Positions 1 to 54,000 of a stretch of DNA of 54,923 bases are shown piece after piece. The notes under the pieces were generated by a model. It did no database searches. It was given only the letters and a program-made list of their open reading frames with translations, and had not been told where the DNA came from. Made by a program: the position numbers and the translations under genes. How positions within the stretch are numbered: position 1 is the stretch's first letter; every line of letters begins with the position of its first letter. The DNA lies in contig JBFZAG010000152.1 in the NCBI GenBank assembly GCA_041309145.1, forward strand, positions 1-54,923, read 5' to 3'. This DNA comes from Candidatus Omnitrophota bacterium (GTDB lineage Bacteria > Omnitrophota > Gorgyraeia > Gygaellales > Profunditerraquicolaceae).

Positions 1-2
1 GA

Positions 3-3000
3 GCGCTTTATTTCTTCAGGGAAGGCATTGTAGTCCAGATCGGAGCTGTTCTGCTTGGCAGGTGGACCGGCGGCTCTTTGGGCGCCTGGATGTATCGGAC
101 ATTGAACGACCAGAAGGATGGGGGCCATGTGAAGAAATACCAGATCGGCCTGGCGGCTTTGTTTATTCTGTCCTTGTTTGGGATCTCGCCGCTGGGGGTT
201 TTATTCCTTATTCCCGCCTATGCGACCGCGTTTATCTTGTGGAAAAGATATTCCTCTCAATTATACGCCCATCACCCGCAGCGCCCCCATCCGCTTATGA
301 CGGGAGTATTATTGGTGGGAATGGTTTTATTCGCGGGCTTTGTTCCCGCGGTAAGCCTGGATATGTTGTTGAGCGGCTTGCTGGTGGCGGTGTTTATCGG
401 CGGAGTGGCAGGTTTTAGCTTGTTCGCCTGCATCGTTTCAGCTAAAGAGCATGATATCCTTGAGGGATTGAACCTCGGTTCCCGGCCGAGTAATTACGTC
501 GCCGTGGGGCGCGCTTTTGAACGCAGTTTCGGCAATTTGAAAGAAGGAAATGTCCCCGAGGCCGTATTGACGGCCAAGATGTTCTTTGAGATGCCCATTG
601 AGACCGAGATGAAACAAATGCTGAGCTTGGGCGACCCTATGGTTGATGATGTGCTCATGGGCACGGAATTCAGGAGATTCAACGCGATGGAGTTGGCGGC
701 TATGGGTTACGGAAATGAGTACCTGAGCCTGATAAACGCGATCGCCAGAAAAACCGGAGAAGGGACTTATCCCTATATGATAACGCGCAATCCCTACCTG
801 GACGGCGGAAATATCGTAGAATATCTCGTCGGCAATCCTTTTGGGCTGTGGGCTGTGCTTACCGCGGCGATGGGATTGCTGAGCTGGCGGGTGGTCAAGT
901 TCAGCGCCATGACCGGACAGCTTGATCAAGCCGTAACTCCGGAGCTTTACCAGGCAATAGGCCGGGTTGTTTTGATGTTCGGAGCTATTTCGATTTTAGC
1001 CGTAAATTTTGCTCCCGCCGGAATTATACAATTTGCGGTAGCGATAGCAATGGCCGGTATTACCGGAATATATCTGGGGCTGTTGATTTACAAATGGTTC
1101 GGCGGCCGTCCTCCTATGCTTGAGCCATATCGGAAAGTGCGCGGCTTCCAGAAGGATGGGGGAAAACCGGTTCAGACAAGGTTGCAAGCCCAGAATTTAA
1201 ATAACGAATTAGCGGAATTGTTATCCGCCGGTCCGGTCAAAGATTTTGTAATTCAGGAGATGGCCAAGAAAAACACGCTGTATCTCAATGACAGATGGGG
1301 AATAAGCATTCTGGACGGGATCGACAAAAACCGGCAGAATATACAAAGACAGGTTGGATTAATGGCATATTTTGAAAGAGGGCTGTTGATGCGTCCTTTT
1401 GTGAACTGGTTCGCCAAACCCGGTTCACGTATGCCGACAGTTTACAGCTTGATCGCCGAATCTTCTGTTCTTGGAGTACATCTGGCAGAAAAACAGGTTG
1501 ATTTCAAGAGAATGGGGATCAGCAAATCTCCGATCCCCGGAGGTTACGGCAGTCCGGCCTTCCGTTTGTCTACGGTGATGGAAGAAGCGGGATTCCCGAT
1601 GCGGGATAATCCGACAGAAGAATTTGTCGCGCCTTTAACCAAAGAGATCGCGGGGCTGATCGTTAAGGATGCCAGCGGAAGATTCCAGGCGCTGCCGGTT
1701 CCGTTTACGGAACAGCATATCCTGATCGACTGGGAAGGCCGGCCGATCGAGATGTGGCTGAGTGAAGGAAGGTATATTCGCCAGGAAATATTTGAATCGC
1801 TGTCGGGTATCGTCAATAAGCCCGGAGCGATCTTTATGGAAAGGCATCCTTTTGACAAACTGATGGAAGATGCCAGGCGCAATAAGTATGCGCCGGTCGC
1901 GCGGTATCATTCTCACCCGCTCAGGAACGAAAGCTTATTGCATCCCGCCTTGCTTCCGCTGCAGAGCATCCCGGATATCGTTATCGATCCGGCCGGCACC
2001 AGAGCAAAAATTTACACCTTTATCCATACTTCAGGCTCATCTCAGCAGCAGTTCCTGGAGAAAGACAGGCAGCTATGGGGTGTTAATATGGTCGAGGAGA
2101 ATCATGACCTTTTTGCCATGCTCAAGAATAAAAACTATCAAAAGGCGCGGCAAGAAATTATCAATCAGTATTTTGCCGTACAAGAAGTCTCTTTGATCAG
2201 CCTTGACGGCGGGATCTTTGAGCCGTTTGCGCCTATCGATAATTTCCGAAGAGCGTTTTACGCAAAGATAGACGAACTGGCCCGCCCCATATTCGGCGAT
2301 CTGGTCGGCACTCCTCTTTGGCAGGATTATGTATTTTTCAGCTGGGCCATTGTCGCGTCGACCCTGTTGTTTGCCATGCGCTATCATTACCGGGACGGAA
2401 TGGTTAAACATCCCGGTTTAAACGATCAAGCCAAACAGCCATATCTCAACCATCGCATCGCAGAGGGGCTATTCAACCATCCTCTGATCAGTTTTTCAAT
2501 ACGCTCCGCGGTTTCTTTGGCAGTAATCACTTTCCTGCCCCTGGAGCATGTCACCTTCATATCCGGGATGGTCTGTTTTATTCTGTCATTATGGTGCGGA
2601 CAGGCGGCGGGGGTCTGGTTATACAAGGCGCAGGGGGGGACAATTTCACCTGTGGTGAGAGAGCAGAAGGATGGAGGGAGAAAGCGCGTTGAACACGGGC
2701 TTTCGGATAAGGCGCTGGAAATGGGCAAGCGAGGGTATCGGTTAGTATATACGCCGCCGGTTCTGGGTAAATTGAAACTCGGCGTCCTGGAATTGCCGCA
2801 AACCAAAAAAGACGGCGACAAGGATGCGGGCGCGCTGGTCGGCGGGAATATGGCTGTTAAGGAAGGCATTCATGTTGAGGCCGCGGATAAGAAAAGAGAC
2901 GGGGGAGAAGTTAAAAAGCCGGCTGAGGAGATTTTTGCGGAAGACGGAAGCCTGGCGGCTATTTTTGCGGATACGAAGAGATCGGTAGAGAGATTCACGC

Positions 3001-6000
3001 CATTTTTAACGGATAATAATATAGCATTCCAGCCGGCGTTGACTTTCGGCAGAAAAGGCCAGAAGGCAGAAGATATCCATTATCAGCGCCCGGCTCCCGG
3101 GCAGCATAGGCCGCGCATAGTGCTTATGTTAGTTCTGGAGGGTAAGATCAAAGCCCGGGCGTATACCGTTTTAGACGAGTTTGTCGCCGAGAGGATTGTT
3201 GAGTCCGGCAATTTGATCATGTTTACCCAGGCTTATTATATTGAGTACCTGGAAGATACCAGGATGCTGGAGATCAAACAGGGGCCTTACCCCGGGGATA
3301 AGAAGAGGGACCGGGTTGTCCTTAGAGAGATCAAAGACGGCGGCAAGGCTGTCGGAGCGACAGTGAACACTAACGGAAAACAGCGCAAGAGTATTATCGA
3401 TATAACCGTGAATTTGGTGAAAAAACAGTTTGACGGTAAATTTATCGGTGCGCACAAAACTTACAATAAGATCATAGATCTCAAGAATCTCGCTTTTGCC
3501 GCTAAACAGGAATCTCTGTTCAACAGCGGGCAGATCAAACAGCCTGATTCCCGCGGGCCGCCCCGATCTTCCGAAGCAAATGAATTATTCCGGAACAATT
3601 ATTTGAAATGGACGGTGATCTTAAGTATTTTCACCGCTTCTTTCTTAACGTCCTCAGCAGTAATCCTGTCGCATTTTACCCTTGCGTCAATTTTGTTCAG
3701 CCCGTTTTGTTTTATCTTGAGCCTGGGCGGCGCCAAATTCTTCTTCTCGACTATTCTGACCTTGCTGGCGGCCAAACCGGTCCTGAATAAGACCCCCTAT
3801 AATGAAAAATTCTGCACGAATGTTCTTCCGAAAACATTTGAAAAATTACCTTCTCTTGCAATTGTCGTTCCTATAAAGGACGTTTCGAACCGCATTGTTC
3901 TGGAGACCCTGAGAAGAGCGGTCCTGGAAAGAGCGGATTATAAACAGGCGGGAGGCAAATGCTGTATTGTGGCGATCGATGACGACCTTTCAGTGGAAGA
4001 GGCGAATAGGTTGGGTTCGAGTACCCAAAAAGAACTGGAAAGGATCAATTTCTACCGCGCAAACAATATCGCTATCGTGGTTAGCCCCAGAGACATCGAT
4101 AGAAAAGGCAAGTTCGGCAAGCCTATCGCCATGAATTACATGCGGGAAGCATTGAAGAGCAATAACCTGCGTGGAGGCTATGTCGAAGGCGGGGCGAAAT
4201 TGGAAGAAGACGCTATCGTACTTCTTCTGGACAAGGATACCTATATTGCTCCGGGAGTCAGCAAGTTCATAATGAAAGAGTTTCAGGATGCCCAAAGATT
4301 GGCGTATATCCAGTGCCGCTGCGAACCTTATAACTTAAGTGAAAATTATTACACAAAAATTGTCGGATATATGACTACCCAGTATTATGATCTGGCTTTT
4401 CCGGCAACCAGCTATTTAGGGTCGCTTGTTCCTTTGGTCGGCCACGCGGTGTACCTGAGAGCTAAATTCTTTGACTGGAGCGAGAACAGGGTCAGCGAGG
4501 ATCTGGACCTTGCCATGCGCCTGGTCACCAAAGGGTTTTACGGGAAATATATGGATCTGCCTCCCGAGATGTCCTTCACGGAATATGTGGCCAATAATTT
4601 TGAAGAAGAAGCGATGCATACCCACAGGTATGTGTACGGAGCTCTGCAATTCGTTTTTAATCCGATCACTCAGTGGCACAAAAAAGGAATTATGAGCTCG
4701 CAGGTGAAGGAGTTCCTCAATTCGCCTCATATGCCCTGGTATATTAAGGTCGACCTTCTTATCTATATAGTAAATCTTTTCTCCCACCCCAGTATCTGGA
4801 TATTTTTATTCCTGGTTTTTCCTTTCCTGCCCCCGCATCCTTTATCCGCTGCCGGGCCGATCATCTTTTACTTTGTCATGGGAACCTGGGCGTCGGTCAT
4901 GGTCAACAGGGCCAGAGATGTAAGCCGGACCGAGAGGGGAATCATGGGAGAAATATTTTTTCATCTGAAATACGCTCTTCCTTACGGGTTCTCGGTTTCT
5001 TCCCACTCCTGGTACGGTTTTAAGGGTTTCCTGGATTTCGCCTTAGACAGAAAACCTAAATTCCGCAGCTCCGCAGCGGGCGAAAATTTGCCTGACTATT
5101 CTCTCCGGGAAGCGATCGCCCAGTCAAGATATTTAGCCAGAAGCCTCACGGAAAGCGGGCTTTTCCTGGCGCTGGTAGTTATTTCCGGGTTCCGCATTTT
5201 GGGGGCGGATATTCAGTTTATCGCCCTGACAATTTGGGCATTGGGAAATTATTTTGTCTGGCAGAACCTGATGAATCCGATCCTGGTAAAAAGCCTGGGC
5301 CGGGCCTCCAGACACGGATTAAAACAAATTAAATCCGGACTTCATTTAACCCGCTTGGAAGATTCTAAAGACCAAAAAGTTTTTGATATGCGCACTGCCG
5401 CCCAGGATAAAGCTGATCGGGACGGCGGGCAATACCTTGCTCAGGCTGTCGAACCGAAACCTGGTTTCGGAGCGCTGGTCAGGACCTTAGGCTCGGTTTC
5501 TTTTGTCATGCTCAAGGGAGGGCTCTGGGGCGGGATCGAACCTTTTACCCGCTACAAGATCCAACAGCGGCTGATGCGCGCTTACGCCATATTCGAAGGG
5601 CCGATAAACTATGAGACCATTGATGAGGTCATTAGGCGTTGGGGGCACACCTCATTTACCTATGCGCTTAGGGATCTGGAAGATTCCGGCGATTTTGACA
5701 GAGAAGATATTGAATGGGGAAAGTTCCTGGTGAGCCAGAAAGATGGCCGGGAATTCGCGGCCTGGTTTAAAGAGCTCAAAGCCCGCTATCCGCAAAATCC
5801 TTTCTTGAAAGAATTTGACCTTTGGCTGCAATACAGTTTAAAAGGGTCCCAGAATCTGATGCTTATCCGCAAGGTCTCGCGCCAGGAAGTATTAAAAGAA
5901 TTCAAACTGGATGCCGAAAAAGCAACAGTATTACTAAAAGGGAGAAATCCTTTTGTCGTGGATGAGCAGGATTTTCTCAAGGCCGCGGTGGTCGGCGCAA

Positions 6001-9000
6001 CCGATATCTTTGCGGCGCATCAGCGAAGCCTTAGGCAGGTGGTCAAAGACCGGTATCAATATGCCGGCCGCCTGGCCAATTTCGAGGATATGGTCAAAGC
6101 TAACGGTTTCTCCGTTGACAAGTTCGGAAAATTCTTTAACGCGGTGCATTGCGCTTCCAGCGGGGAGGAGCTTGACATCGAATTCAGCCTGATGAAAGAG
6201 AATGAGATTAAATACTTCGCGGATCGGCTGGCCAGATTTGTTAGCCGGCGCCGGGATCTCGACTGCGGCGAAATAGATATTTTTAACATCGAGCGGAACC
6301 TGATAGCCAGGCCGGAAGCGCTGTCCGGCGCCCGGGGCAAATTGCGCTTGGCCCTTGATACCCTGTTTGATTCCAATAAGTTCATCGAAGGGCTTGCGCC
6401 GGCTTTACAGATCTTTGACCTTAAGAGCAAAGCCTTGCCGTATGATTTTAAGATCGTCATCAAGGATGACGCGGAATTTCTGGGAGGGTTTGATGAAAAA
6501 TCCAAAAGCGTGTTCATCAACACGGCAATATTTGAGACCGGGCCGCCCCAGGTGATCGCTTTTATAGTCCTCTTAAACGCCTACAAACTTACCTATCCTG
6601 CCAAACCCGATGAAGTAGACGCGGCGGTCGTCCGCGAGGTCTACCGGCAAGCCGCCTACAGCAAAGATCCTTCTGATTCTATCTTTGTGCAGACCCGTAA
6701 TTACCTTATTGCCTACCTTCGATCAAATCAAGACGCTCAAGCGAGTTCCTGGCTCGGGCAATTAGATGAATTAAACCGGATCATGGCCCTGCGCCGGCCT
6801 GAGCTTCTTGATAATCCCGCGGAGTTAACCGGGCTGTTCAATTATCTCATTCGCCTGCGCGTTATCGCTTATAATCCTGAAAGCTCGGCTGAAAAGAAAG
6901 AGTACCTGGTTAATGGCAACCCGCTTTATGCCTGGTTTATGGCGGTCAGGGCTGACCGGCCCGCGGCAACAGTCAGTTTCAATAATCCGCAAACCCAGGA
7001 CCTGGAAAGTATTTTTGAACGTTCCGAACATCCGGCCGGATTCTGCGATCTCTGCAATAACCTCAAGATCAAGATCGAAGAAATAGCTCATATGGCCACG
7101 ATCCAGGCGATAAACAAACAATGGTGGATCAGGCCGAACCAGTTCCCGATTTTTAATAACCACGTGCTGTTATTGCCGCTTAAAGAAGGCCATGAAGTAG
7201 AAAAAACTCCCCAGCGGCTTATCCCGGCCTACATTGAAGACCTGCTATATATCAGCAATAAATACCCGCTGATGAGGATCTTCTTTAACAGCTACGGCGC
7301 CGGAGCTACCCAGGGGCATTTTCACGGCCAGGGAATCTTTAACCGGGAGCTGGTCCCGGAAAGATACAACCAGGAATATTTCAGGACCGTCAACGGCGTA
7401 AAGATCAGCCTGCTCAAAGATTATCCGGCCATGTGCCTGGTATTTGAATCCCAAAATACCAAAGAACTGGCTGAGCTGGTTCACCGGCTAAGCGATATCC
7501 TGCTTAAGACCGGCAAGCCGCATAATGTTTTATTCATCAAGGGCAAGCTCTATTTGTTCCTGAGGAACAAAGAAGTGCCGGCAAACTTTCCGCGGGTCAG
7601 GTTCGGGACGCTGGAAATGTGCAGCGAAATGATCCTGCCTTTCTGGGTCGATTATTACCGGACAGAGGAAAAGATCAAGGCGGCGGTATTTGAAGTGTTG
7701 AACGCCATTAAGTCGGACGAAAAGAAAACCCTGGCCCAAAAACTGCAAGAGCCTAAACCGGCCACCCTGCATAATATACTGCTTAACTTCTACAAAAAAG
7801 AGCTTTATGAAGGCGTTCTGAACAAAAGCGGTTTCGACGCAATAGAAATCCAGGTGCGGGATATTTTCGTCAACGTAAAAAAAGCCGGTATTAATATTAT
7901 CCGGCCGGAATCATTAGATCCGATGGGCAGTTATGTGGATGATAGCCTGGGACAAAAGATCAGAGACGCGCTTGTTGACATTTCTTTTAAAGCCGAGGAT
8001 CTCGAGCGCTTATTCCAGATATATGAAGCCCTGGAATATTTAGCCCCGAGGCAAGAGTTGCGCCAAGCGGATATTTTGATCCTCCTGGGAAACGAAAATC
8101 TGGAAGTATTAGAAAAAGCCGCCGAAGTGGCCGCTTGGGCCGACCAGGTTATTGTTTCGGGCTTCAGGGGAAGGCTGACCGAGGACTTGATCGAGAACGC
8201 GCAAGCCCGGTACGGCAAAGATTTATTATCCGGAAAAGATGAATCGGCTATAAGCGAGGCAGAGGTTATGGCTAAGATCTTAATAGCCAAAGGTGTTCCG
8301 GAAGAGAAGATCAAGCTGGAAGCAAGATCCAGGAACACCAATGAAAATGTGCAGTATACCAGGGAGCTGATCGAGCGGGAAAACCTCAAGCATGACACGG
8401 TGATCGTCATGCAGACCCCGCTGCAGCAGCGCCGGGCGGCGTTCGGGTTTAAAACCTTTTTCTTCGCGAATACAGAAGTGATCCATTACGCCTGGGGCAT
8501 ACCGGATGAATACGGCATGATCGATCCCGCTAAACGCAGAGTGCTCTGGACTGAGATCATCAATGAGATCGAAAAGATAGCCCTGTACGGAAATTTGGGC
8601 CTTCATTTCTATGATTTTGATCTATCGGAGTTTCCGGAGCATATCAGACGATTGCTCAAGATCAGATTAGCTTCCCGGATCGACCATACCAATTTAAAAG
8701 CGGACGCCACTGAACAGGAGATTACCAGGACCTGCCAGGAAGCAAAAGATCACGGGTTTGCCTTGGTAGCGATCCGGCCTCAGATGAGCGGAATTACTGC
8801 CAGTGAACTCGAGGGCTCTCAAGTTAAAGTCGGGCCGGCAATAGGGTTCAAGAATCTTATTACTGCGGCTGACAATGCTGCGGATCAGGAAAAAGCTTTA
8901 AAAAGATACGATATCTCAATAGAAGAAAAGTTCGAAGAAATCCGGGATTCGATCTCAGTTATAAGGAGACATGATCTCGGTTTTGAGATCGATTTTGTGA

Positions 9001-12000
9001 TCAATCTGTACAAAATGCTGGTTGAGAATAATAGCGATCATGTTGAAGCAGAGATCAAGATTCTTATTGAGTCTGTGCGCAGCCTGGAAAGGCCGGGAGA
9101 GCATATTATTGTTAAAGTCATTTTTGAGAATTGCTATTTAAGCGACGAACAGAAACAAACAGTATGCGCCTGGGCTGGGAAATACGGGGCGGATTTCGTA
9201 AAAACCTCTACCGGGTTCGGCCTGGCCGGAGCAACAGCCCAAGACGTATCTCTAATGAAAAAGAATATTGATCCGGCTATGCAGGTCAAGGCCGCCGCGG
9301 GGATTAGAAATCTTAAAGATATGTTTTCCATGCTCAACTCCGGAGCGTCCAGGATCGGCACCAGCGCGGGAAATGCGATCATTGCAGAAGTGGATAATTC
9401 CGGAGCGAAAAATATAGACGGCGGTCATGTGTTGGCCATAAACGGAGAGCACGGCGCGGGCAAAAGCACTCTGGCTAAAGAATTGGCAAAGATCACCGGC
9501 CTGCCGATTTTCAGCGGCGGAGCGATCATGCGCGGATATGCCGAAAAGAGGGGGATGAGCGTTAAAGCTTATACGGAAAAGTTCCTGATCCTGCCGGAAA
9601 ACGCCGAAGAGAATAAAAAGATCAATAATGCCATTGACCGGGCTCAGGAATTTGCCATACACAACGGCAATATTATTACCGAAAGCAGCCTGGGCGCATA
9701 TTACGCCGCGAAACACAAGGCTGATCTGGCTGGGCGGAATGTGAAGGTAACCAGGATCCTGCTGGTAGCTGATTCCCGGGCCAGGGCAGAGCGTTCAGTG
9801 CGGGGCATTTTGAACGGAACCCGTTCTCAAGATGAAATGATGACGGTGGAGAAAAAAGAGCGGGAGTTGATCGAAAGAGACGCTTTTGACCGGAAAAATC
9901 TTTTGCAGCTAACTGGCAACGTCTTTGATATTTTCGATACCCTGAATTATGACCTGGTGATCAATGTGACCGAGAAGAATCTGGAAGATGTTCCGACAAT
10001 GGCCAGAGCTATTCTCGTCTTTGCCGGTTACCGGGAGGAAGAAAGAGGAGTTCTGACAACCGATAAAGTTTTTGACGTCGCCGTATTCAAACTTAGATTA
10101 AATCCCAAAGAAATCGAGCTGATTGTTTCTCTGCAGAAAAAATTCAGCAACATAATGTCCTGGTCGGGCAAAGACGGCATTGTCAGGATCAACGGCAAAA
10201 AAGCGCCGCAAGCTAAATTCAGGCCGGTTGCCACCCATAAAAAACTGGCGGAGCAGGGATTTGCAGCGGTTATTCCTTTTGGCAATCTTTTCTGGCATCC
10301 TCACTATGTTGTTTACCGCTCCGGAAAGCTGTTTTATCGAAAAGGCGAGAAAAGAAATATCGCCAAAGGATATGAATACCCGAGCCTTGTTTTTTATAAA
10401 AACGGTACTGTGGGATTTAAAGCAATTAATTTTAATCAAAAAAACGGCTGGTGGAATAATAACAAAGCTCGCATCCGGACCGTTATAAGCGCTCCGACGA
10501 TAATAAAAGACAGCAAAATACTTGACCTCGAAGGAGTTCATTTTGAAGACATAAGGCACGTTTTCAGATGTCCCAAGATATTGGAGGGTCAGGATAAATG
10601 GTACGGAAGTGATATTTATTTAGGCAGAGAATTACTTTATTCCGACAGCCTGGCAAGATCACGCGCGTTTAAGGGAGAAGCCATAGAGGTGTCCTTAGAC
10701 AGGTATGACCTGACCTGGGAACAAATAGAAGAGGCTTTATCTGATGCCGGTTACAGCTTGGTTGAAAATCCGGGAGATGTCCGCTCGCGCGGCCAAGTTT
10801 ATCTGGATAAGGCATCCAATAAGATGGTTATTATAATTAAATTCTCTCAATATCCTCAAATGATCATGGCTTTGGACCAGGGGAATCAGCTCGTCTTTTA
10901 CGCTTTCTCCGGAAAATCCAGCAGAGAAGGTTTGACATTGGGCCAGATCCAGGAGTATCTGAAGGCGCAAGGGATAAAAGATGCAATGATCTTATGTAAC
11001 GGCAGCGATGTGAGTATGGAACATAACAATAAAGTAGTCTTGCCGACATGGAACAAGAGGAAAGCTTTTACCGCGATGATCTTTATTTATCCGTCAGGAA
11101 AAAAGAAAAATGAAAAGCAGGACGGCGGAGAAGATCAAGTAGTAGATAATAAGAAAGATTACGGCATTCTCAGGACGGATAAATGGCTTAAGCACCAGAG
11201 CAGAGTGGAGCAGGTTTACAACGGTGATTTCTACGGAGTGATCCCGGTAACGATACAGTTTGTGCCTTCTTTACTTTGTAATTTCGTATGCTGGGGCTGC
11301 ACTTACGCTGACCTTAAAGAAGATCCGAGGAATCATAATTCCGGATTGACGAGAAAACTTTCTTCCCAAGAAAAATTGATGGATTACAGTTTGATGAAAG
11401 AAGCGATCGATAAGCTTCGCAGGGATGGGGTCGAGGCGATAATCTTTACCGGCGGCGGAGAACCGACCATGCATCCTCAGCTGATCGATATTATGGAATA
11501 CGCCAGAAAGAAGGGCTTGAGAGTGGGGCTGTTCACCAACGGAAGCCTTTTGACCAAAGAAAAAATTATCCGGCTTTTAAATCTCAATCCCAGGTTTATC
11601 AGGATAAGCATCAATGCCGGCACAGCTCAAACTTATAATGCCATTCATGGGTTGCCTGAGGATAGCGGAACGCTTGACACGGTGCTCGGCAACCTGGAAT
11701 TCTTAGCTAAAGAAAAGGCAAAAAGGGAAGCGGAGATCATAAGCAGGCTTAAAGCAGAAGGTCGCAACGAAGAGGAGATCGATGCTTTTATAACCCACAA
11801 TGTCACTAACGTGAGCGTAGGTTTTATTGTCAATCCTTTAAACGCCAAGGAAGTAGAGATATTAGCCGGAAAATTAAAAGCGATTTATCAGAAAGATATT
11901 CGCGGCGGGATCAATTATTTCCAGATCCGCCCTACGGTAAATTATGAGCGCGGCAAACAGTATCCCAAAGATCTGGAAGAAAGAATGAGCAAGCTTCAGC

Positions 12001-45000: not shown

Positions 45001-48000
45001 TTGCCGAAAATAACAGTTTAAAAGATATTTTAGGGATCAGCCATTTGCAGTCAGTCCCGGACAAGGAAGAATATTTGCGTTTAGCTCTTGCCCGGGCAGC
45101 CAATGTTTTATCCCGCCCAACAGATGAAGTTCGCGCCTTTAAAGAAGTTTTCTTTGAAGACAATACGGTCATCCTCAGCTATGTCTTTTCCAAAAAACAG
45201 GTCTTAGTCCGGATCGCTCCCGATAATTTCGCGGATCACCTTACTGATACAGCTAAAATAATTTCTTTCTTCGGCCAGGGAACACGGGCGGATATAATTG
45301 CTGATCCCCAAGAAGTGAAGTCCCTGCTCAAAGAATTGCGTTTATACCGCAGCTATCCGCAGCTATACCAGATAGTTTATAAATTAAATTCTTCAGACCC
45401 GGCCATTGTGGTGGAAGCAATCCGCAGCCTGGAGGCATTACTGACAAAGCCGGTCCTTAAAGATGAAGCCCAGCGCCTTCTGGTGGCCGCATTGGGGATA
45501 GATAATTATCAGGTCCAGCGCCTGGCCCAGGAAATACTGAATAACGCTTTTAGCGGCCGTCCGGCAAGGTTTCCTAAGGCGCAACAAACCATGATCGCCG
45601 CATTAGGAGAAAAATTATCTTTAGCTAATATAGTTATCAAGGTCGGATTTAATCCTCTTAGACAAAAAGACAAGCTCCTGCGTTTCAAAGCCCAGCTGGC
45701 TTGCTCCAGCAATTACTCTAAAAAGATAACTTTTTATGACCTGGCTATAACCCCGGAAAGCGATGATTCCCTGAAACTGGCAGTAGCGCAAGCCGGCAGT
45801 TTGATCGAAGCCAATATGGGAATTGTCAATCTGGCCTTGCGAATAAGCCGGAATAACGGCCGCAGCTGGGAATATGTTGCCGGCTATGGGGCCAATGCGA
45901 CGATATTCTTTCAGCCGGATATTAAAGGCACAATGATCTATCAGGTCTGGCCGGCGCAGCTGGGGGTGTATGACCGATCGGGCCAGGTAAGCTATGATGA
46001 AACCGGAAGGGCTGTTCCCGGAAATTTCCAGACTGTTGAGAACATATTGCCGGAACTGAAGGCCCGAGGTTATACCAAGATCTATCTGATGGGCATCTAT
46101 CAATTGGACAAGCCGGAGAATATTATCGGCCAGGTCGGTCCGGACGCCTCATTGTTCTCTCCTTTAAGCTTCAGGGTGAGCAAAGAATTAGGCGGGGAAA
46201 AAGGGTTGGAAAAATTGATCAAAAAAGCCAGGGAGCAATTCGGCATAGGCATACTGGTCGATATTATTCCTCATGTGAACCAGAATTTCCGCGATCTTCC
46301 TGAATGGGCCATGGTTAAAGTCCGCAGAGGCACAGACAATAAGATCATCCGCAGGCTGGCTACTGACGGAGCGATCAACCATGAAAACGGCCTGCCCGTA
46401 GAGTGGCATGATTCAGTGATGCTGAACTGGCGGGACAAGCGGGTAGCCCAGGCTTACGCAGAGCTGTTGAAGCGTTTAGCCAAGCTGGGAATACAGGGGG
46501 TCAGGATCGATGTCGCCCATAACTTCGGATCAATGCTACCGGTGGATAATGGCTTGAAGAGCAAGCAAAAGCTTTTCGGCCTGGTTACTTCCTGGGAAAG
46601 GAACGAGTCCGGCGGGTTTAAAATCGTCAACGCCTGGGATAATGATCAGGCTAACCCGATCTTGCTGTATCTGGTTTCCCAGGTCAACCGGGAATATCCC
46701 GAATTCTTGTTTATCGGAGAAAACTACGGCAAGTACGTACAGGTGATCAAATCCGGAGTGGTCCCCATGGATTCCGGGACCCATGATGATCTGGAAAAAG
46801 TCATTCTGAAACAGGCTTCGGTCAAAGCAATCCTGAACGGACACTTCCGCTGGCTGTTCGCTGATCTGCCGCAAGGAAGCCAGCTGGTTTCGGCCCTGGA
46901 AACCCATGATTATTTCCGGGCCATGGATAAATGGCAAAGCTACGGAGCGCAAAAAATAAAAGCAGCGATCTGGGCCTGGCTGGCGACCACCCGGGGAGCG
47001 ATCTCGGTCTACAACCGCCAGGAGATCGGCGAGGTCCACAGGATCCGGATCGACAATTACACCAAGCATGATTACCAAGAAGCCGACCAACAGCGCTACT
47101 ACGCTCAGCTGGAATTTGAAAATAAATTCAAGGAAACCATCCAGGAATTTTACGGCCGGGCATTGAAATTGTATAAAGATCATCCCGCTATCAGCCAGGG
47201 GGCGAATTACATATTCGAAACGGATAACGACCGGGTATTCGCGATCGCCAGGTACGATGAAAAAGAAAACTTCATATTTGTAATAAATATGGGTTGGGAA
47301 ACCACCAAAGTTCACATAAATCTTTCAAGCCTCTGGCCGGCTTTAGGGGTCGTTGATTCAAGAAATGAATTTTACCAAGTCGCGGACCTGGAAAACAAAA
47401 TTCAGGAAATATTCACCGGAGAAGAATTAAGAGCGCAGAATATCGAAGTCACCCTCACTTCTTACGGAATTTCAATTGTAAGCGTCAAACCGGCCTTAGA
47501 AAACAGCGGCACTCGGCAGGACGGAGGCAAAGAGGATCTAGTTATTATCGCTTTGCGGGACGCTATAAATCGTTACGCATCCCAGGAGCGGGCTGTACGC
47601 ACGTCGGCCAACTACGCTTTTGTCCAGCTTGAGGAAGCGGTCCTGGAAAACGATCAAAGCAAGTTTAACGAGCGTTTTATTCAGCTGGCCAAGTTCGTTG
47701 AAGGCGAAGAGCGCTTCGGCGATCTGTACGCCGGAGACCTGACTTTGCTGATGCATGAATTATTGGGCAAGCACGCGGATAAAGAGGATACGGTCAAAGG
47801 CCTTTTGTCCCAAGCCGCGCAAACTTTTAAAGACGCGACAGCAAAAACAGTAATTGAAAAAGTGATCCGCTGGATAGACATAGGAGTCGTGGTCTCTGTA
47901 TCTTCTGAAGCAGCGCCTGTTTCCAAGGCAGGAGGCATGGCCAATGTGGTAGGAGAGAAGACCCAGGAGCTGGCCAAATCAGGATTAAAGGTCTACATTG

Positions 48001-51000
48001 TCAGCGACCTTTATCAGGATACTGAAAAAGGCCCGGGCCAGAGGGTATATTCCAAGGAAGAAACTATACAAAAATACAATATCCGATATACGGGCAAGAC
48101 TTTGTCGGTCTATATGGGCAGGCACGGCCAGTTCCCCGCAGGACTTGCCAGGACCAAGATCAACGGGGTTGAATATTTATTATTGGACCATCCTGCTTTT
48201 GCCGACGCGCTATACGGCTCAGGGGTATCAAAAGAGCACGAGTTGCTGCGGTCGATATTCCTTTGTTTCGGGGCCCTGGAAGCATTAAAAGCCAGCCACG
48301 TATATCCGCAGATCGTGATCGGCAATGACTGGATGTGCGCGCCTTTAATGGCCCACTTGAACTCAGCGCGTTCCGCGTATAAACATGATCCGCATTTCAT
48401 AAATACAACAACGATCGGCTGGGTGCATAACAACGGCCAGGATTACCAATTCAAGGTAGGGCGTTTCCAGGATGGAATCGACCTGTTGAGCAACCTGGGA
48501 TTGCCCGCGGAAGATTTCGGCTGGTTCATTGACCCGCACCGTTCGGAATTAATAAATCTTATGGCGGCGTTTATCCGGCATTCTCATTTCGTAGTGGCGG
48601 TAAGTCCGGGTCAAATGCAGGATTATCTGCGCAGCGACGATAAAGGCTGCGGAGAAGGCCTGAGCCATATTTTGCGGGAAAAATGGCAGCAGAAAAGGTT
48701 GTTCGCTATCACTAACGGCGTAGATATCCATAAGATCCAGGGAGAGTGGTTCGGCAAAACACTCTTTGACATACATTCCCAGCGGGATCTGGGAAAAATG
48801 TTAGCCGCCGCAAAAAAAGCTAAACAGCAAGCCCGCGAGGTCATTGCCGATGCCGGATTGTTCTGGCCGGCTTCCGGAGGAAGATCGAGCTTCCTGAACA
48901 AGCGGCATATGGTGGTCAATATGGTTTCCCGGATCACCGAGCAGAAAGGCATGAATTTAGTCGCGCCGTTTGTCCGGCGGGTGATCTCCAGCGGCAGATA
49001 TCCCGAAGTGGTTTTTGTATTCGGGGGCAACGGCGAACGTTTCTGGATGGACCGCTTGAATGAGCTGGTTTACGAATTCCCCGGCAAAGTAGGTTATTCC
49101 AACGGCTTTTTGCCGGATCCGCACCCGCTCAAGGTCTATCAGCGCACCTTCCTGGCCGGCGACCTGTTCATCGCTTTTTCAGTATGGGAACCGGGAGGGA
49201 TCTCTCCCATGGAGGCTCTTGCCTTTGGCGTGCCCTGTTTTGTCTCTGACAAGCAAGGCCTTAAATCTACGGTTAAGACCATAGCCATTCCGGAGTTTAA
49301 CCATATCCCCGGTCTTGACCGGGAGGAAAAAGGTTTTAACGGAGCGCGGGTTCCTGTGTACGAGTGGGATGTTAATTATACCCTGGATAATATAATGTCC
49401 GGCTTTGACCGCCTCTACCGGATGTGGAAGAACAGAAAAACCGACAAAAAATGGAATGAAATGACGATCAACGCGCTGCTCTCGGATAACAGCTGGGAAA
49501 AGTCGGTCAAGGATGTCGAGAACTTATTTAAATACGCCGTAAGCGGCAGCGAAGAATTTTACAATAGATTTTTTCCCGAAGAAAGCCCGGAAAATAAAGA
49601 CGGCGGCGATATCGATCCGATCGTGATTGTTTCGCCGGCGGCGCAGCCTATTTCTTCCGTAGGCGGAATGGATAGAGTGGTCAAAGATATTGCGGTCAGG
49701 CTTGCGGAACGAGGCCACGAGGTGATTATTATTACCCCGCTCTACAAAGATGAGTGGATCGAAAGAATAGCGCATTTAACTGATGCCCAAAGCTATGTGC
49801 CTCCCGAGGAGTTGATAAGAAGATATCAGATCGATTTCTCCGGCCAGGAGAAAGCCAGGTTCAAAATCGGCGGTAATGATGTCTCTTCGGCGGAAGTCGG
49901 CCGGACAAACATAGACGGCGTGGAATATCTCGTGCTCAGAAATAAAGATATCGCCTCTCTTCAGGGCGGCTCTTTTATGGGATATGTCCCGGATCCCGCC
50001 CAGTTTTTGCCGCGCTGGGTATCGCGTTCCTCAATCGCATTTTCCCTGGCCAGCTTAGAGGCAATAAGGACACTCGGCATTTATCCGCGCATCATCGTGG
50101 GCAATGACTGGATGTGCGGGCCTATGGCCGCGTATCTTAAATCTTCCGGATGGCCGTATGCCGGAGATCCTCATTTTGCCTATACGCACAGCATTGCCTG
50201 GGTGCATAACGCAGGCCCGGGATATCAATTCCTGGCCAGCCGTTTTGACCCTTCTACCAAATACGATTTGTTGCTTGATCTGGGATTGCCTGAGCAAGAA
50301 TTGAAATCTTTCGTTGATCCTCATAACCCGAACATGATCAATTTTCTCGGGGCAATGATCCAGAATTCAGATTACGCGGTTACTGTAAGCAAGGGGCAGA
50401 TGCAGGCATTCCTTGAAGAGCCTTTTGGGGTCCATGAACAGTTAATCCAGAAGTCGCGGGAGCGCAGGTTATTTGCAATTGAAAACGGGATATTCCAAAG
50501 AGAAAAGCAAAGAGAGTGGTTTGGGTTATCGGCCTTTGACATTGCCCCGCAGAATACCGCCGCGTTTTTAGATTCCGCCTATAAACAGAAGGCCTTAGCC
50601 CGCAAAAAGATTTTTGACGGTCAATTGTTATACTTCCCGGCCTATGTGGAGAGACACACTCATTATTATGGCATTCCTGAAGAAGTATATCAAAGATACA
50701 ATTCTTTGCCTGCCCGGATAAGTAGAGGGATGGAGTCTGTTCTAAGCGGGGTTTCCGGCCGCACAGATGAAAGTGATTTTGTGGTCACTATGGTCTGCCG
50801 GATAACCGGACAAAAAAATATTCCCCAGGTATGTGATTTTGCAAAGATCATCCTGAATGACAGAAGATATAACTCTGTGAAGTTTATTTTTGCGGGCGAA
50901 GGCGACCGGTATTATATGAAATGGCTTCTTGGGTTAGCCGCAGACTACCCCGAACGGGTGAGGTATTCCTATTCATTTGTGACAGAAGAAACAAAGAATT

Positions 51001-54000
51001 CGGTCTTGCTTTCCGGAGACCTCTTCATTTCTTTCGCGAAATGGGAACCAGGAGGTATCGCAGTCAAAGAAGCGCTTGCCGCAGGGAATGTCTGCCTGGT
51101 ATCTGATGTCGGCGGACATAAGTCTTCAGTTATTTCTGGATTCAACGGCAGCCGTTTTTCCGTCCTTGAATCCGAGCACAGGACTGTCCGGGAAATGATC
51201 GTGCCGGAGTTCGACAAGCTGTTTTCATTATGGCAGGAAAGAAAAACCGACAACAGCTGGAATACCATGGTCAAAAACGCCTTGTTCTCTGACAACCGCT
51301 GGGACAGGTCGATGGTCGACATCGAAAACCTCTTTAATTACGCGGTTACCAGTGGCGAAAACACGAAGCAGCCGGACGGAGGAAAAGTAAAAAATGACGT
51401 GTCGAAATGGCTGTTAGTGTTTGATTTTGACGGGACCATGACTGATCTTGACAAAAAGAGCGAATATTTTGAGAAAGTTCCTCCGGCTTTAGAGAATGCC
51501 TTGATCAGAGCGAGGAATAAGGGAGCCAGGATTGCGATATTATCGGGAAGAGCCCCCAACTTTGTTTATGATCAATTAAACCAGAAGACACAGTTATTGA
51601 GCGAGCTCAAATACTCCGGACAAGTAGCGTTTTTGGGAGAGCTGGGCGGCCATATCGCTTATTGCACTGACCGCTGCGAGTTCGTCAAAGACTCGGATTA
51701 TTCGCTGGAGCTTTCCGAAGAGTTAAAAGCTAAGATCTTAGAGAAGATAAAAAACAAATTGACCGAGCTCGGGCTTATCGACCATCTGGTAATGCAGGGA
51801 ACTGTCGGGAAAATCATCCTCAATGACCGCAAGCAGTCGTCGCGCACGCTGAAGTTCGAAGGAAAAGAGTTTGAAGCTTATGCCCCGGAGATCTTTGATT
51901 ATCTCAAAAGGGAACTGAAAGCCGACAGTGTCTATGTGTTCAACAACAATAATGTCGCCATCGACATTGGTTTGACCGCCAAAGGGCTGGCTTTAAAGGA
52001 ATTTGCCGGGAGAGCCAATATCGCGATAGAAAACATATTTATAGCCGGAGACAGCGGCAATGACCTGGATATGCTTTATCTGGTGTTCGAAGGAGCGATT
52101 GGCGCATTTGTCAAAAATTTTGAGGCGATCCCCGAAGATCTTAAACCTAAACTGATTTTAGTCAAAAATCCCGAAGAATTAGGTTGGCTTCTCGAGAAGA
52201 AGTTCGATCTCAAAGACGGCGGAAACCAGATACCATTTCCTTTCCCCAACCTGTTTGATAACCAGCGCGGCTGGAACGATCCGGAATGGCTGGAGGCTTA
52301 TTTAGTGGCGGGCGCGCTGCTCAAGGTCGCGGATGACGTTAACGCCGGCATTCCAGCGGAGCAGATCGCGGAAGCAGCAATCGGGGAGTTCGCGGATCAC
52401 GGTCTTGCCGCAGACCGGGAAAAGATCGTTCAGCGACTGGAAGGCTTGCGTCGCAGAGGACTGATCCGGAACAGCGATAATAATATGGCGATCCGTCCGG
52501 AGAGCACGGTTTATCTGAATGTCGAACCGCGGGTGGTGGCGGTCTGGGCGGATGACTTTAATTATATCCAGTCGGATATCGAGCGGGCGATCGTCGCCGG
52601 AAGGAACGAGCTTTTAAACACCATAGACGCTTACAGCGGGATAGTCGCGCAATGGCCGGAATACCCGGTTGAGGCCAAATATCCGGTTTTGCGCGCGATC
52701 GTCCAGATGAGCCGGCCGGGGCAGAAAATTCTGGTTGATTGGCTGTCCAGCCGCGGTTTTTCGAACCGTACTTCCCTAGTGGATGCGATCCTGCTCATGC
52801 TGGATTTTGAAAATGCCAGAAAAGACTGGCTGTCATACCGCGCGCCCCAGCTTTTGGGCCGGAACATTTATCTTGTGGCCGCGGAGATCTCTTTGCTGGC
52901 CGGCGGACTGGGCCGGGTGATGCAGTATCACGGGACCGCGATGCACCAGCTTTGCGCGGGCAAAGCCAAAGTCATCTATGTCGAACCGGATTATCCTTTT
53001 ACCCGCGATCAAACAGGTAAAGTCATTGATCTGCATTTTGATAAACTGGCTATACCTGTGCGCGGGATCAGGAAGCTTGATCAGCGTTTTAGCACCTTCG
53101 TAGCCGGCAAACCCGTAGAGTTCGAAGTGTCTACCGGGATAAACAGCCTGGGGGTTCCGGTATATATGATCAAAGATGTCCCGGGCTATTATGTGAATAT
53201 TCTTTACGAATACAGCACTCCGGAATCACCGGCTTCTAATTTCGAGTTCACCGAATTTTTCACCAAGGCAACGCTGGAGTTGATCCGCTATCTGGAAGTC
53301 CGGGAAAAGCGCGAGCAGGGCTCCGCGTATAAAGCGCCGCTGGTTGACGCTAACGACGGCCAGGCCCTGCCGCTGGTGGCCTGGCGCCGTATTTTTTACG
53401 GAGAAAAAGAAAAAATTGTGCGGGGGGATTCTTCAGAAGAAGATATTACTGACGCCTATGAGATATTGCGCGACGCGGTATTTTGCGGCACAACCCATAC
53501 TTACCGCAACCGGGTCATGATCGGCGGAGATATCAAAGCTTTCGGTTTGCCATTCTTGAAAGCCGCCGGAGTTTCCGATGAATGGCTGTGGATATTTTTG
53601 CGCAAAGAGCTTGAAGGCTCGCTGCTGTGGGATTTTACCAGCGCCGGGCTGCGCTGCGCTGACGTGGCCAAGGGGGTAAGCGCCATCCACGCTTACGAGA
53701 TGAATGCCCGCGATCCTTCGGTCAGGCTTTTCGGCTTGACGAACGGAGATAACCGTTTATATTCCTCAGAATATTTCCGCCAGGCGCTCGCTCAGGCCGG
53801 CTGCGTTGATTATGAAGACGCTTCCGGCGAGCAGGTCGCCGCGGCCAAGCGGATCTCCAAGGAAGCGTTGGGGCTTAATCCGAGCCAGATGGTCATTTCT
53901 TATTCCGGCAGGCTGGTCCCGGAAAAAGCCGGACAGGAGCGGGCTTTCTTTGAATCCAATATCGAGGCCATGGTCAAGGCCGGCATCCAGGTTATTATTT

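Follow-up and report, generated by a model that had tools for sequence, protein, structure and literature searches.

A recurrent Asp-Gly-Gly motif between the modules of a giant multi-enzyme gene from Candidatus Omnitrophota

The tripeptide Asp-Gly-Gly (DGG), most often preceded by Lys, Arg or Gln, was found to be a real, lineage-specific delimiter between the modules of an Omnitrophota-type giant protein. It recurs 39 times in one reading frame that runs through a stretch of 54,923 nucleotides (nt) from Candidatus Omnitrophota bacterium (NCBI GenBank assembly GCA_041309145.1, contig JBFZAG010000152.1, positions 1 to 54,923; hereafter the window). The conclusion is drawn from its enrichment, its placement at module junctions, its conservation in relatives and the signs of selection at the peptide level. 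The full proposal, in which the window is an internal stretch of 18.3 thousand amino acids (kaa) of a giant multi-enzyme gene, is punctuated by DGG and yields a product cleaved at these sites, is given about an even chance.

DGG sites, module junctions and relatives

Frame +3 of the window (nt 3–54923, forward strand) is free of stops over all its 18,307 codons and continues past either end of the window, while the remaining frames hold 465–1,091 stops each; amino acid (aa) i of this frame corresponds to nt 3i to 3i+2. Re-translation gave 39 in-frame DGG at coordinates identical to those of the original prediction, with none missing and none extra, and its tally of the residue preceding Asp was also reproduced (K21, R5, Q5, L4, P2, I1, A1). 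That only a handful would be expected proved correct, as the expected number was 5.1 with independent residues and 6.1 when dipeptides were preserved, and in 2,000 shuffles of the window protein the count averaged 5.07 and never went above 14. DGG tops the over-representation among all tripeptides (P=1.5e-21) and KDGG that among all tetrapeptides, with 21 copies against 0.37 expected (P=1e-29). Near-cognates lie at or below expectation (EGG 0.3x, NGG 0.25x, GGG 0.3x, DGA 0.16x and also DGS), DGE and DGN are absent from the window protein, and ordinary genomes taken as control had 5 DGG against 6.1 expected. The median spacing from DGG to DGG is 350 aa, and the segment lengths quoted earlier (146, 141, 204, 280, 351, 532, 693, 592 and 867 aa) were all recovered. 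At least 34 of the 39 sites lie in unique sequence contexts; a recurring mini-module of 29 aa accounts for three sites, and a pair of paralogous cupin-like modules for two. At the position after the motif (P1′), Gly or Pro is found at none of the 39 sites and L, F, Y or W once only (P=0.002).

Domains were sought by Pfam, NCBIfam and Protein Data Bank (PDB) sequence searches on chunks cut without regard to DGG. Twenty-four domain envelopes were recognised, making up 34.6% of the window protein. Those in the first part are GT2, DUF218/YdcF, DeoC, a CMP-kinase-like P-loop, NAGPA, two radical-SAM, SPASM, S-adenosylmethionine (SAM) methyltransferase, PHP and GH94; those in the second part are two HAD-IIB, a GlnD-type nucleotidyltransferase, GH3, HD/RelA-like, ROK, SIS, CoaE, cofactor-independent phosphoglycerate mutase (iPGM), HAD-IA, alpha-amylase and two GT5. 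None of the 39 sites was located within an envelope (P=6.6e-8) and native termini adjoin the sites, which strongly supports the original proposal that DGG marks the passage from one enzyme to the following one. The GH94, iPGM, CoaE, DeoC, CMP-kinase, GT5 and HAD modules are full length against PDB chains or NCBIfam profiles, with DGG 0–15 aa away. Residues 8–811 of the 811 of a cellobiose phosphorylase (PDB 3qde) align with aa 5823–6674, with DGG at 5809 and 6676, and residues 4–510 of the 511 of PDB 1ejj align with aa 12509–13021 of the iPGM module, with DGG at 12504 and 13036. The CoaE profile begins 2 aa past DGG 12300 and ends 14 aa before DGG 12504, and the end of DeoC lies 3 aa before DGG 3139, with the next P-loop kinase starting 1 aa after it. 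Of the four modules for which native N-termini had been placed directly after Gly-Gly, iPGM keeps its Met there (KDGG/MIRPVALII, the slash marking the boundary), and CoaE, the CMP-kinase-like module and ROK start 2, 1 and 6 aa downstream. Nineteen sites are independently supported as junctions by domain criteria or by comparison, and the rest are flanked by unannotated regions. The suspicion that the L-DGG sites are chance occurrences did not hold for nt 801, a junction conserved in a relative (L008, below); the site at nt 2205 could be background.

By its size, domain repertoire, putative transmembrane (TM) clusters and named relatives, the gene was assigned to the known Omnitrophota class of giant multi-enzyme proteins. 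Members have been described as ‘Archaeovorins’ (West-Roberts et al., 2023, bioRxiv 10.1101/2023.11.21.568195) and as class 1 ‘multi-enzyme metabolic clusters’ (Nielsen & Lui, 2026, bioRxiv 10.64898/2026.06.07.730766). The 18,307 codons of the window lie above the 10,000 or more codons in a single open reading frame (ORF) that mark the class, whose sugar-metabolism families were all found (PF08323, PF00534, PF00480, PF04055, HAD and methyltransferase) together with GH94, GH3, iPGM, CoaE, SIS, DeoC and amylase. About eight clusters of TM-like segments along the ORF were seen in a hydropathy scan, and the closest named relatives are Omnitrophota/Omnitrophica fragments from metagenome-assembled genomes (MAGs), P0007 (54%) and P0132 (55%). 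Neither the window nor the related loci contain a marker gene. The published giants and the window share a stop-free ORF of more than 10 kaa, a tiling of GT5, GT1, ROK, radical SAM, methyltransferase, HAD, PGM-type and GH domains, and, as far as hydropathy indicates, interspersed TM helices. The two papers give domain content and speculation on C39 or S8 cleavage and report no junction motif, unlike the present analysis.

A metagenome scan with the 3′-terminal 2,465 aa of the window as query gave five loci (L004–L008) at 55–72% identity on contigs of 86–897 kb, each wholly stop-free over 6–8.9 kaa. DGG exceeded expectation in L008 (21 observed, 3.2 expected), L004/L005 (11 and 2.8) and L006 (11 and 2.0), with no enrichment in L007 (2 and 1.9). 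Fourteen of 16 homology-block ends lie 25 aa or less from a window DGG (median 6 aa), against 1.7 under the null, and 0 of 10,000 randomisations reached 14; 11 of the 15 DGG of relatives inside aligned blocks coincide with a window DGG. The motif is kept at orthologous junctions despite a different neighbouring module, for example at aa 39, 267, 3139, 4497, 13304, 15840, 16533, 17125 and 17405, and near aa 14984 both L004 and L008 have DGG a few residues away. Module order is heavily rearranged among the window, L004, L006, L007 and L008: window modules aa 38–269 and 2654–3147 adjoin in L008, and L007 has the final two blocks of the window in the opposite order. This indicates that modules are shuffled like cassettes within a single ORF.

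An exhaustive HMMER search with aa 9514–10713 gave 555 relatives, many of them multi-module proteins of 1–5.9 kaa. Among the 88 of at least 1,000 aa, DGG enrichment was seen in P0152 (9 observed, 0.6 expected), P0154 (8 and 1.1), P0211 (5 and 0.6) and P0164 (4 and 0.4); besides the loci, the DGG-type proteins comprise P0007, P0123, P0124, P0152, P0154, P0158, P0163, P0164 and P0211. DGG stands at both ends of iPGM in P0007, an Omnitrophota MAG fragment, and in P0152 it brackets TreT, ROK with trehalose phosphatase (TPP), and OtsA. At the junction corresponding to window site 9891, DGG is present in four of the five matches that extend so far. The comparison of homologous giants suggested in the original prediction therefore did find DGG conserved at junctions, in L004, L006, L008 and these further proteins. 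A scan of GTDB representative genomes with CoaE-iPGM and flanks gave ordinary iPGMs only, the window itself being absent from them, and an exact-match search of IMG/VR for the source contig was negative. It should also be noted that a 5.8-billion-cluster protein catalogue contained no match above about 1.7 kaa and a representative library none above about 6 kaa, though the contigs of the giants are public; giant ORFs thus seem to be absent from protein catalogues, so that standard homology searches miss them.

Other lineages carry other punctuation. In L007 (aa 688–6084), [A/V]-S-S-P-[V/I] occurs in 14 copies against 1.2 expected, and it stands at a junction where others have DGG (KVSSPVASRSYI/IPYPFPD against KDGG/NQIPFPFP); SSP instead of DGG was found at this junction, that of window aa 17405, in P0125, P0126 and P0138 as well. 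P0149 contains AASPV nine times (SPV 16 against 0.8), and P0157, P0184 and P0252 are also of the SSP type. A-A-G-L-E-E is repeated in seven proteins (P0215, P0221, P0222, P0245, P0246, P0248 and P0281) and A-G-A-E-E in three (P0217, P0254 and P0274). After the conserved ROK C-terminus (...YERELVAFTP), DGG, AASPV/SSSP, AAGLEE or AGAEE follows within 0–15 residues, depending on the protein, and the junction of window DGG aa 9862 accordingly reads AASPV, SSSP, AAGLEE or AGAEE in other lineages; on the N-terminal side of ROK, DGG/, AGLEE/ and AGAE/E adjoin the first strand. Every variant contains two tiny residues (GG, AA, AG or SS). By these comparisons the punctuation is lineage-specific, with DGG only one of several delimiters. 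A separate repeat, DT[F/S]RT[S/T]SEPS[L/P], was noted at aa 147, 204, 1637 and 3328 of P0146 (3,592 aa; from the 90% cluster of the closest relative of the window iPGM), and this 11-residue element may be a further, longer delimiter type.

Short peptides of 13–76 aa ending in DGG recur. The mini-module of 26–29 aa (GALVGGNMxVKEGIHVEVADKKKDGG) is present three times in the window, once with DGG on both sides. Related DGG-bounded peptides (GAMVGTILKEGEMGRETADNRLYRDGG) lie at aa 140–162 and 497–527 of L008, which also has, at aa 4012–4042 and directly before its terminal GT5-like module, three tandem 14-aa units ADARRVASSRDGG, each ended by the delimiter. The mini-module has no Pfam match, and a word-indexed protein search with the mini-module and the cupin-like region gave no match. 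In an AlphaFold model of aa 870–1114 (mean pLDDT 44) it is a low-confidence coil, with weak cupin resemblance nearby. A ubiquitin- or ThiS-like identity found no support in the Pfam result or the coil model.

Level of selection and possible functions of the delimiter

Judged from codon usage and comparison, the delimiter is functional at the peptide level. That the count merely reflects chance, composition or a few duplicated linkers can be practically dismissed: the mini-module and the paralogous modules account for five sites and about 5 of 39 would be expected by chance, but the P value near 1e-21, the shuffle maximum of 14 and the 34 or more unique contexts speak against it, and enrichment was seen independently in relatives from other metagenomes, so this explanation is already refuted. 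Very little credence is given to a DNA-level scar or target, an in-frame recombination or insertion site (GACGGCGG) used for pasting cassettes. It would fit the shuffled cassettes that end at DGG, and the codons are indeed biased, with GAC at 33 of 39 Asp (38% overall) and GGC at 27 of 39 first Gly (36% overall), and likewise in relatives. However, the GAC-GGC bias is a general dipeptide-context effect: in the pooled DGG-type giants, GAC makes up 81% at non-junction D-G against 87% at the sites (p=0.34), and GGC 61% in other G-G pairs against 73% at the sites (p=0.08). The second Gly codon varies freely at its third base, no conservation of flanking bases was found around DGG beyond the K/R/Q codon, and a nucleotide-level signal was rejected on these grounds. 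The SSP Ser residues of L007 are encoded by TCA, TCT, TCG, AGT and AGC, that is by both codon families (TCN and AGY), a usage for which only selection on the peptide accounts, and the DNA scar is already largely refuted. As an observation on codon context, Asp before Gly is GAC in about 81–87% of cases in the window, L004, L006 and L008 (34–44% elsewhere), and Gly-Gly pairs mostly begin with GGC and hardly ever with GGT; one possible cause is that contexts such as GGAGG/GGTGG or TG-G are avoided. Equally improbable is a signal in RNA or translation, be it mRNA processing, a ribosomal pause for co-translational folding or a release independent of stop codons, none of which would need a protease. 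Transcript cleavage was raised by West-Roberts et al., Gly-Gly and Ser-Pro could affect elongation, and pausing is compatible with the sequence. Against it, an Rfam search of the window found no family, predicted RNA folding energy at the sites equals that at random in-frame positions (p=0.45), and synonymous positions are free or explained by context. Nor is there a Shine-Dalgarno sequence with a start after the sites, Met following one site only and at zero spacing, and a cut mRNA without a stop would leave non-stop transcripts. Since the codon control, the Ser codons, Rfam and folding are all negative, the DNA and RNA explanations were set aside.

Cleavage after Gly-Gly is the best-supported mechanism, and we regard it as about evenly poised between right and wrong; the cutting itself, the bond cut and the acting protease are what we infer. 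Complete enzymes of native length, which serve sugar, glycogen, glycolytic and nucleotide metabolism, are strung together in one frame with putative membrane-anchoring helix clusters. [K/R/Q]-D-G-G is the peptide punctuation between modules, selected in this lineage, with A-S-S-P-V/I, A-A-G-L-E-E and A-G-A-E-E elsewhere. An endopeptidase with narrow S2 and S1 pockets would recognise DGG and cut after Gly-Gly, and the products would have N-termini a few residues from the native start and C-termini with a short ...x-D-G-G tail. The candidate enzyme may be a C39-type (double-glycine) peptidase domain near the N-terminus of the giant, outside the window. Cleavage is favoured because an exact motif lies between complete, unrelated enzymes, because selection acts on the peptide, because lineages switch motif, and because of the two tiny residues and the P1′ preference; the lineage-specific replacement at the same junctions is the pattern expected of cleavage sites that co-evolve with a protease. 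It is possible, though less probable, that DGG is instead an uncleaved, standardised hinge or connector, acting as helix break, flexible turn or docking element in an intact, membrane-tethered metabolon. DGG, SSP, AAG and AGA consist of small turn-forming residues typical of flexible linkers, the putative TM-helix clusters along the ORF fit a tethered assembly, the tandem DGG-ended units of L008 resemble an extended linker, no protease was found in the window or related fragments, and many related giants without a delimiter presumably function. Linkers of unrelated domains normally vary in sequence and length, however. Here one exact tripeptide is found at more than 30 junctions, with EGG, NGG, DGA and DGS depleted; entire lineages have changed over jointly to a different exact motif; and the Ser codon-family switching in SSP shows a strong peptide-level constraint. 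So narrow a specificity suggests that the motif is recognised by a trans-acting factor. Such recognition could also serve a non-hydrolytic end, namely transpeptidation or ligation (as in ubiquitin-like GG conjugation), another modification or an isoaspartate switch, which we consider improbable. Asp-Gly is the most isomerisation-prone dipeptide. The strictly conserved Asp is left unexplained by Gly-Gly peptidase specificity alone, the short DGG-ended peptides recur, and the mini-module tail ...HVEVADKKKDGG loosely recalls the tails of ubiquitin-like (Ubl) proteins, ThiS and MoaD; yet no ThiS, ubiquitin, E1-like or JAMM domain was found in the domain searches of the window, the mini-module is modelled as a low-confidence coil, and the SSP, GLEE and AGAEE motifs of other lineages share no such chemistry with DGG.

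A number of observations weigh against cleavage. Proteases were sought in the window with Pfam at E<=0.001 over the whole frame, Pfam at E<=0.1 on 20 unannotated segments, NCBIfam and PDB phmmer, and no peptidase domain was detected in its 18.3 kaa, nor, with Pfam on L007, L008, P0152, P0154 and P0211, in about 30 kaa of relatives apart from one Transglut_core. No C39, S8 or SecA-like domain was found in the window or the fetched loci, all of which are internal fragments. C39 peptidases cleave after GG, GA or GS, and canonical enzymes need hydrophobic residues at −4/−7/−12 (−15) (PMC10885120); this pattern was not found upstream of DGG, where the position-specific profile has no hydrophobic periodicity and shows a preference only for K/R/Q before Asp. 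DGG is missing from some junctions, as segments of 1,332 aa and 2,460 aa contain several enzymes without it; an L008 block with DUF218 and DeoC, which lie in the former, starts at DGG, so that a delimiter is either optional or prone to loss. Several linkers between two folded domains are only 4–6 residues long, which would be no obstacle to cutting, as KDGG/MIRPVALII mirrors the LRGG/MQIFVKT of polyubiquitin. Structure models of junction regions are of low confidence, and about 66 of the 88 related multi-module proteins of at least 1,000 aa have no enriched tripeptide, so that any real processing would be confined to part of the class. The original prediction of an operon fused into a polyprotein and cut into roughly 35–40 products is thus strongly supported as regards the modules and the junction motif; the cutting is putative, and no protease was found in the window or these relatives.

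The sole protease-fold candidates seen were transglutaminase-core matches (papain-like Cys-His-Asp fold). One lies between HAD and CoaE at aa ~7142–7240 of L008 (E=1e-6), and a sub-threshold match (E=0.07) lies at aa ~10150–10235 of the window. C39 domains have been reported near the N-terminus of full-length Omnitrophota giants (bioRxiv 10.1101/2023.11.21.568195), whose cleavage points the authors call unknown, and a 24-protein C39 architecture cluster was described among 916 long Omnitrophota proteins (10.64898/2026.06.07.730766).

Feature coordinates and further observations

Table 1. DGG sites and modules of the giant reading frame, in window coordinates (a slash marks the end of the motif).
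Feature	Position (nt)	Strand	Basis or comparison
Giant multi-enzyme ORF, internal piece	3–54923	+	stop-free frame; enzyme domains along whole length
DGG aa 39, K-DGG/HVKKYQ, then 4-TM module	117–125	+	RDGG at aligned junction in L008
DGG aa 267, L-DGG/NIVEYL	801–809	+	L008 FSRDGG at aligned module end, then different module
DGG aa 385, K-DGG/KPVQTR	1155–1163	+	motif alone
DGG aa 735, L-DGG/IFEPFA	2205–2213	+	motif alone; could be background occurrence
DGG aa 890, K-DGG/RKRVEH, after TM pair	2670–2678	+	motif, hydropathy
DGG aa 966, R-DGG/EVKKPA, end of mini-module copy 1, start of cupin-like module	2898–2906	+	motif, repeat comparison
DGG aa 1112, K-DGG/KAVGAT, end of cupin-like module (146 aa)	3336–3344	+	weak cupin fold matches
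DGG aa 1807, R-DGG/QYLAQA, end of membrane GT2 segment	5421–5429	+	Pfam
DGG aa 3139, I-DGG/HVLAIN, DeoC aldolase to CMP-kinase-like P-loop	9417–9425	+	domains; RKDGG aligned in L008
DGG aa 3707, Q-DGG/EDQVVD, between NAGPA-like and radical-SAM modules	11121–11129	+	domains
DGG aa 4497, K-DGG/LYEEIR, 18 aa after SAM methyltransferase, before cupin-like module 2	13491–13499	+	QRDGG aligned in L006
DGG aa 4638, R-DGG/SSGVIS, end of cupin-like module 2 (141 aa)	13914–13922	+	motif, paralogy
DGG aa 5021, L-DGG/SAVLDE, ~106 aa after radical-SAM 2	15063–15071	+	motif; uncertain boundary
DGG aa 5295, K-DGG/EKTLAE, before PHP-domain module	15885–15893	+	Pfam
DGG aa 5809, K-DGG/QKIEID, GH94 phosphorylase start 9 aa downstream	17427–17435	+	PDB 3qde alignment
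DGG aa 6676, R-DGG/EKIDTA, GH94 native C-terminus 0–2 aa upstream	20028–20036	+	PDB alignment
DGG aa 6735, K-DGG/KNWVAI, end of mini-module copy 2	20205–20213	+	motif, repeat comparison
DGG aa 7051, A-DGG/ISGRAK, opens 2,460-aa DGG-free multi-enzyme segment	21153–21161	+	motif alone
DGG aa 9511, K-DGG/EKINIV, ROK kinase start 6 aa downstream	28533–28541	+	P0158 DGG 1 aa before same strand
DGG aa 9862, Q-DGG/KKFGAL, ROK C-terminus ...RELIAFSQ directly upstream	29586–29594	+	DGG in P0154, P0158
DGG aa 9891, K-DGG/DIAKTE, end of mini-module copy 3, before SIS	29673–29681	+	DGG aligned in P0152, P0163, P0164, P0211
DGG aa 10486, R-DGG/DAERER	31458–31466	+	many homologue alignments stop here, most without DGG
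DGG aa 10713, K-DGG/AEVVAV, after TM-cluster module	32139–32147	+	motif, hydropathy
DGG aa 11035, K-DGG/QIGASA	33105–33113	+	motif
DGG aa 11080, K-DGG/KEKAKK, closes 45-aa inter-site peptide	33240–33248	+	motif
DGG aa 11798, Q-DGG/RIIPII, before winged-helix array	35394–35402	+	relaxed Pfam
DGG aa 12300, Q-DGG/IKIIGL, CoaE profile position 1 at +2 aa	36900–36908	+	NCBIfam profile
DGG aa 12504, K-DGG/MIRPVA, CoaE end −3 aa, then iPGM with retained Met	37512–37520	+	PDB 1ejj; DGG also in P0007, L008
DGG aa 13036, K-DGG/ERQTEL, iPGM native C-terminus 11–14 aa upstream	39108–39116	+	P0007 DGG at aligned end
DGG aa 13304, K-DGG/KDLLIE	39912–39920	+	L008 orthologue of module likewise ends ...LDGG
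DGG aa 13729, P-DGG/DSSGIN, before 5–6 TM cluster	41187–41195	+	motif, hydropathy
DGG aa 14468, K-DGG/KEENRQ	43404–43412	+	motif
DGG aa 14564, K-DGG/NDDQTE	43692–43700	+	motif
DGG aa 14944, L-DGG/SALRKA	44832–44840	+	motif alone
DGG aa 14984, K-DGG/SIVPQN, start of amylase-containing module	44952–44960	+	L004, L007, L008 blocks start here
DGG aa 15840, Q-DGG/KEDLVI	47520–47528	+	APDGG aligned in L004; absent in L007, L008
DGG aa 16533, K-DGG/DIDPIV, GT5-a end −15 aa, GT5-b start +4 aa	49599–49607	+	SSRDGG in L008
DGG aa 17125, P-DGG/KVKNDV, GT5-b end −9 aa, HAD-IIB start +8 aa	51375–51383	+	TRDGG in L006
DGG aa 17405, K-DGG/NQIPFP, start of terminal GT5-like module	52215–52223	+	DGG in L004, L006, L008, P0123, P0124
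Mini-module copy 1, GALVGGNMAVKEGIHVEAADKKRDGG, aa 940–968	2820–2906	+	internal repeat comparison
Mini-module copy 2, aa 6709–6737	20127–20213	+	internal repeat comparison
Mini-module copy 3, aa 9865–9893, 29-aa peptide with DGG on both sides	29595–29681	+	repeat comparison; related peptides in L008
GH94 cellobiose/chitobiose phosphorylase, 867 aa, full length against solved structures	17436–20036	+	Pfam, PDB
ROK-family sugar kinase module, 351 aa	28542–29594	+	domain profiles, homologues
CoaE (dephospho-CoA kinase) module, 204 aa	36909–37520	+	domain profiles
iPGM module, 532 aa	37521–39116	+	profiles, PDB
GT5-a (693 aa), GT5-b (592 aa) and HAD-IIB (280 aa), each DGG-bounded	47529–52223	+	profiles, PDB
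Terminal divergent GT5-like module, 900 aa, cut by window end	52224–54923	+	stand-alone gene elsewhere

Several other features of the frame were noted. The DGG-free segment at nt 5430–9425 (aa 1810–3141, 1,332 aa) contains DUF218 and DeoC, and that at nt 21162–28541 (aa 7054–9513, 2,460 aa) contains ROK-like, HAD-IIB, nucleotidyltransferase, HEAT/LRV repeat, GH3 and HD/RelA-like regions. The DGG-bounded segment at nt 35403–36908 (aa 11801–12302) has many weak winged-helix/helix-turn-helix matches (TrmB, HTH_45, ArsR-like and PaaX) over its length and looks like an array of DNA-binding-type domains of this kind within a metabolic giant protein. In the window iPGM (aa 12621–12630, nt ~37863) the motif GLxSxGGVHS, usually with Gly-Gly and often with DGG, is replaced by GLISNAV[V/I]HS, and the same replacement was found in P0001, P0007, P0010, P0011, P0014, P0021 and P0023; these closest iPGM relatives include enolase-iPGM-PPDK triple fusions of about 1,725 aa without any DGG. 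Avoidance of DGG inside modules (SNAVVHS in the window against SxGGVHS) was considered and not taken as evidence, since the delimiter-free fusions share the replacement and the D is variable among iPGMs.

The terminal GT5-like module is also found as a plain stand-alone gene (P0122), and with DGG or SSP flanks in 1.4-kaa proteins with signal peptides (P0123–P0126). P0121–P0130, P0134, P0140 and P0141 are homologues of aa 17408–18307; the stand-alone and the 1.4-kaa forms among them have N-terminal signal peptides and share a conserved N-domain of about 330 aa (WVNLSPxEKDRI, RKYFSGG) and a C-terminal GGIDFNPxxL element. Such features are unexpected in a glycogen-synthase-like enzyme and suggest that these homologues act outside the cytoplasm. 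An AlphaFold model of the P0123-like N-domain (pLDDT 51) gave no fold match.

As regards gene neighbourhood, P0001 is the 3′ end of such a giant gene; PilZ, a sugar ABC transporter and glycoside hydrolases come next, a downstream neighbourhood matching that described for Omnitrophota giant genes. In L011 (contig QYPY01000035.1, nt 1–13978), the closest iPGM relative forms the 3′ end of a giant ORF that is truncated by the contig, and the downstream genes encode PilZ, a sugar ABC transporter (substrate-binding protein with two permeases) and glycoside hydrolases. The minus strand of the window has ORFs of up to 259 aa antisense to the giant frame, for example at nt 46536–47315 and 22047–22796, which are most likely non-coding by-products of the composition of the long sense ORF.

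Comparable systems and significance

The features expected of a polyprotein are in part present here: full-length alignments to PDB chains and equivalogs, together with the stand-alone P0122, show complete independent units, and a short conserved motif lies at their junctions. Viral polyproteins are cut at Gly-Gly by coronavirus PLpro (LXGG/), African swine fever virus pS273R (GG/X), adenain and alphavirus nsP2. They share with the window one long ORF, a short motif with tiny P2 and P1 residues at junctions, variation between lineages and small spacer peptides. They differ in that the host here is cellular, the modules are housekeeping enzymes, Asp is conserved at P3, and P4 is K, R or Q and not Leu; cleavage in the giant protein would in addition be putative. 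Precursors of polyubiquitin and Ubl proteins (...LRGG/M...) likewise have head-to-tail units without spacer, with the GG tail directly before the first strand or Met of the next unit, whereas the units here are unrelated enzymes of 100–900 aa and not one repeated beta-grasp domain; no Ubl or deubiquitinase domain was found in the window by domain library searches. The double-glycine leaders processed by the C39 domain of PCAT/AMS transporters (PMC10885120) have GG at P2-P1, with GG, GA and GS tolerated, and C39 has been reported in Omnitrophota giants. GG is invariant at all 39 window sites, with AA, AG or SS in other lineages, and the sites are internal and repeated and lack the pattern of those short, N-terminal, amphipathic-helix leaders.

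MARTX toxins carry modular effector arrays that are released by an internal C80 cysteine protease domain (CPD) cutting after Leu, along with RTX repeats. Like the present gene they encode a very large bacterial protein with cassette modules shuffled between strains and short linkers that hold the cleavage residues, but the modules here are metabolic enzymes, and no C80 CPD or RTX repeats were found in the window domain searches. AROM, CAD, FAS and the PKS/NRPS megasynthases are uncleaved multi-enzyme fusions. They too place several pathway enzymes on one polypeptide and would be the model if DGG is merely a hinge, although their linkers are variable, without a recurring exact motif, and their unrelated activities are far fewer.

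In the literature searched, neither DGG nor a polyprotein was mentioned together with Omnitrophota, and the two giant-gene papers give no junction motif; the DGG delimiter and its lineage variants are apparently undescribed. A lack of cleavage-point information had stopped the splitting of giants for structure prediction (West-Roberts et al., bioRxiv 10.1101/2023.11.21.568195), and DGG supplies concrete candidate cut sites for the question of whether and where giant bacterial proteins are cut. In practical terms, DGG, SSP, GLEE and AGAEE offer points at which giant ORFs can be split computationally before they are annotated or their structures predicted, (meta)proteomes can be searched again for neo-termini at defined positions, and two-module constructs can be designed for protease assays. 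Even without cleavage, the delimiter would be a useful marker of module exchange.

It is conceivable, though we lean slightly against it, that a free-living or episymbiotic bacterium makes much of its carbohydrate, glycolytic and cofactor metabolism as one product that is cut in virus-like fashion at a lineage-specific code (DGG here, ASSPV, AAGLEE and AGAEE elsewhere) co-evolving with a dedicated protease specific for small residues. Polyprotein processing would then replace operons and stop and start codons as a source of stoichiometric enzyme sets, and DGG-bounded cassettes would be swapped between genomes. If cleavage holds true, the gene would provide the first case of a cell making its housekeeping enzymes as a polyprotein with a site code in the viral style; if it is refuted, an exact three-residue connector among unrelated enzymes would represent an unusual design rule for megadalton metabolons.

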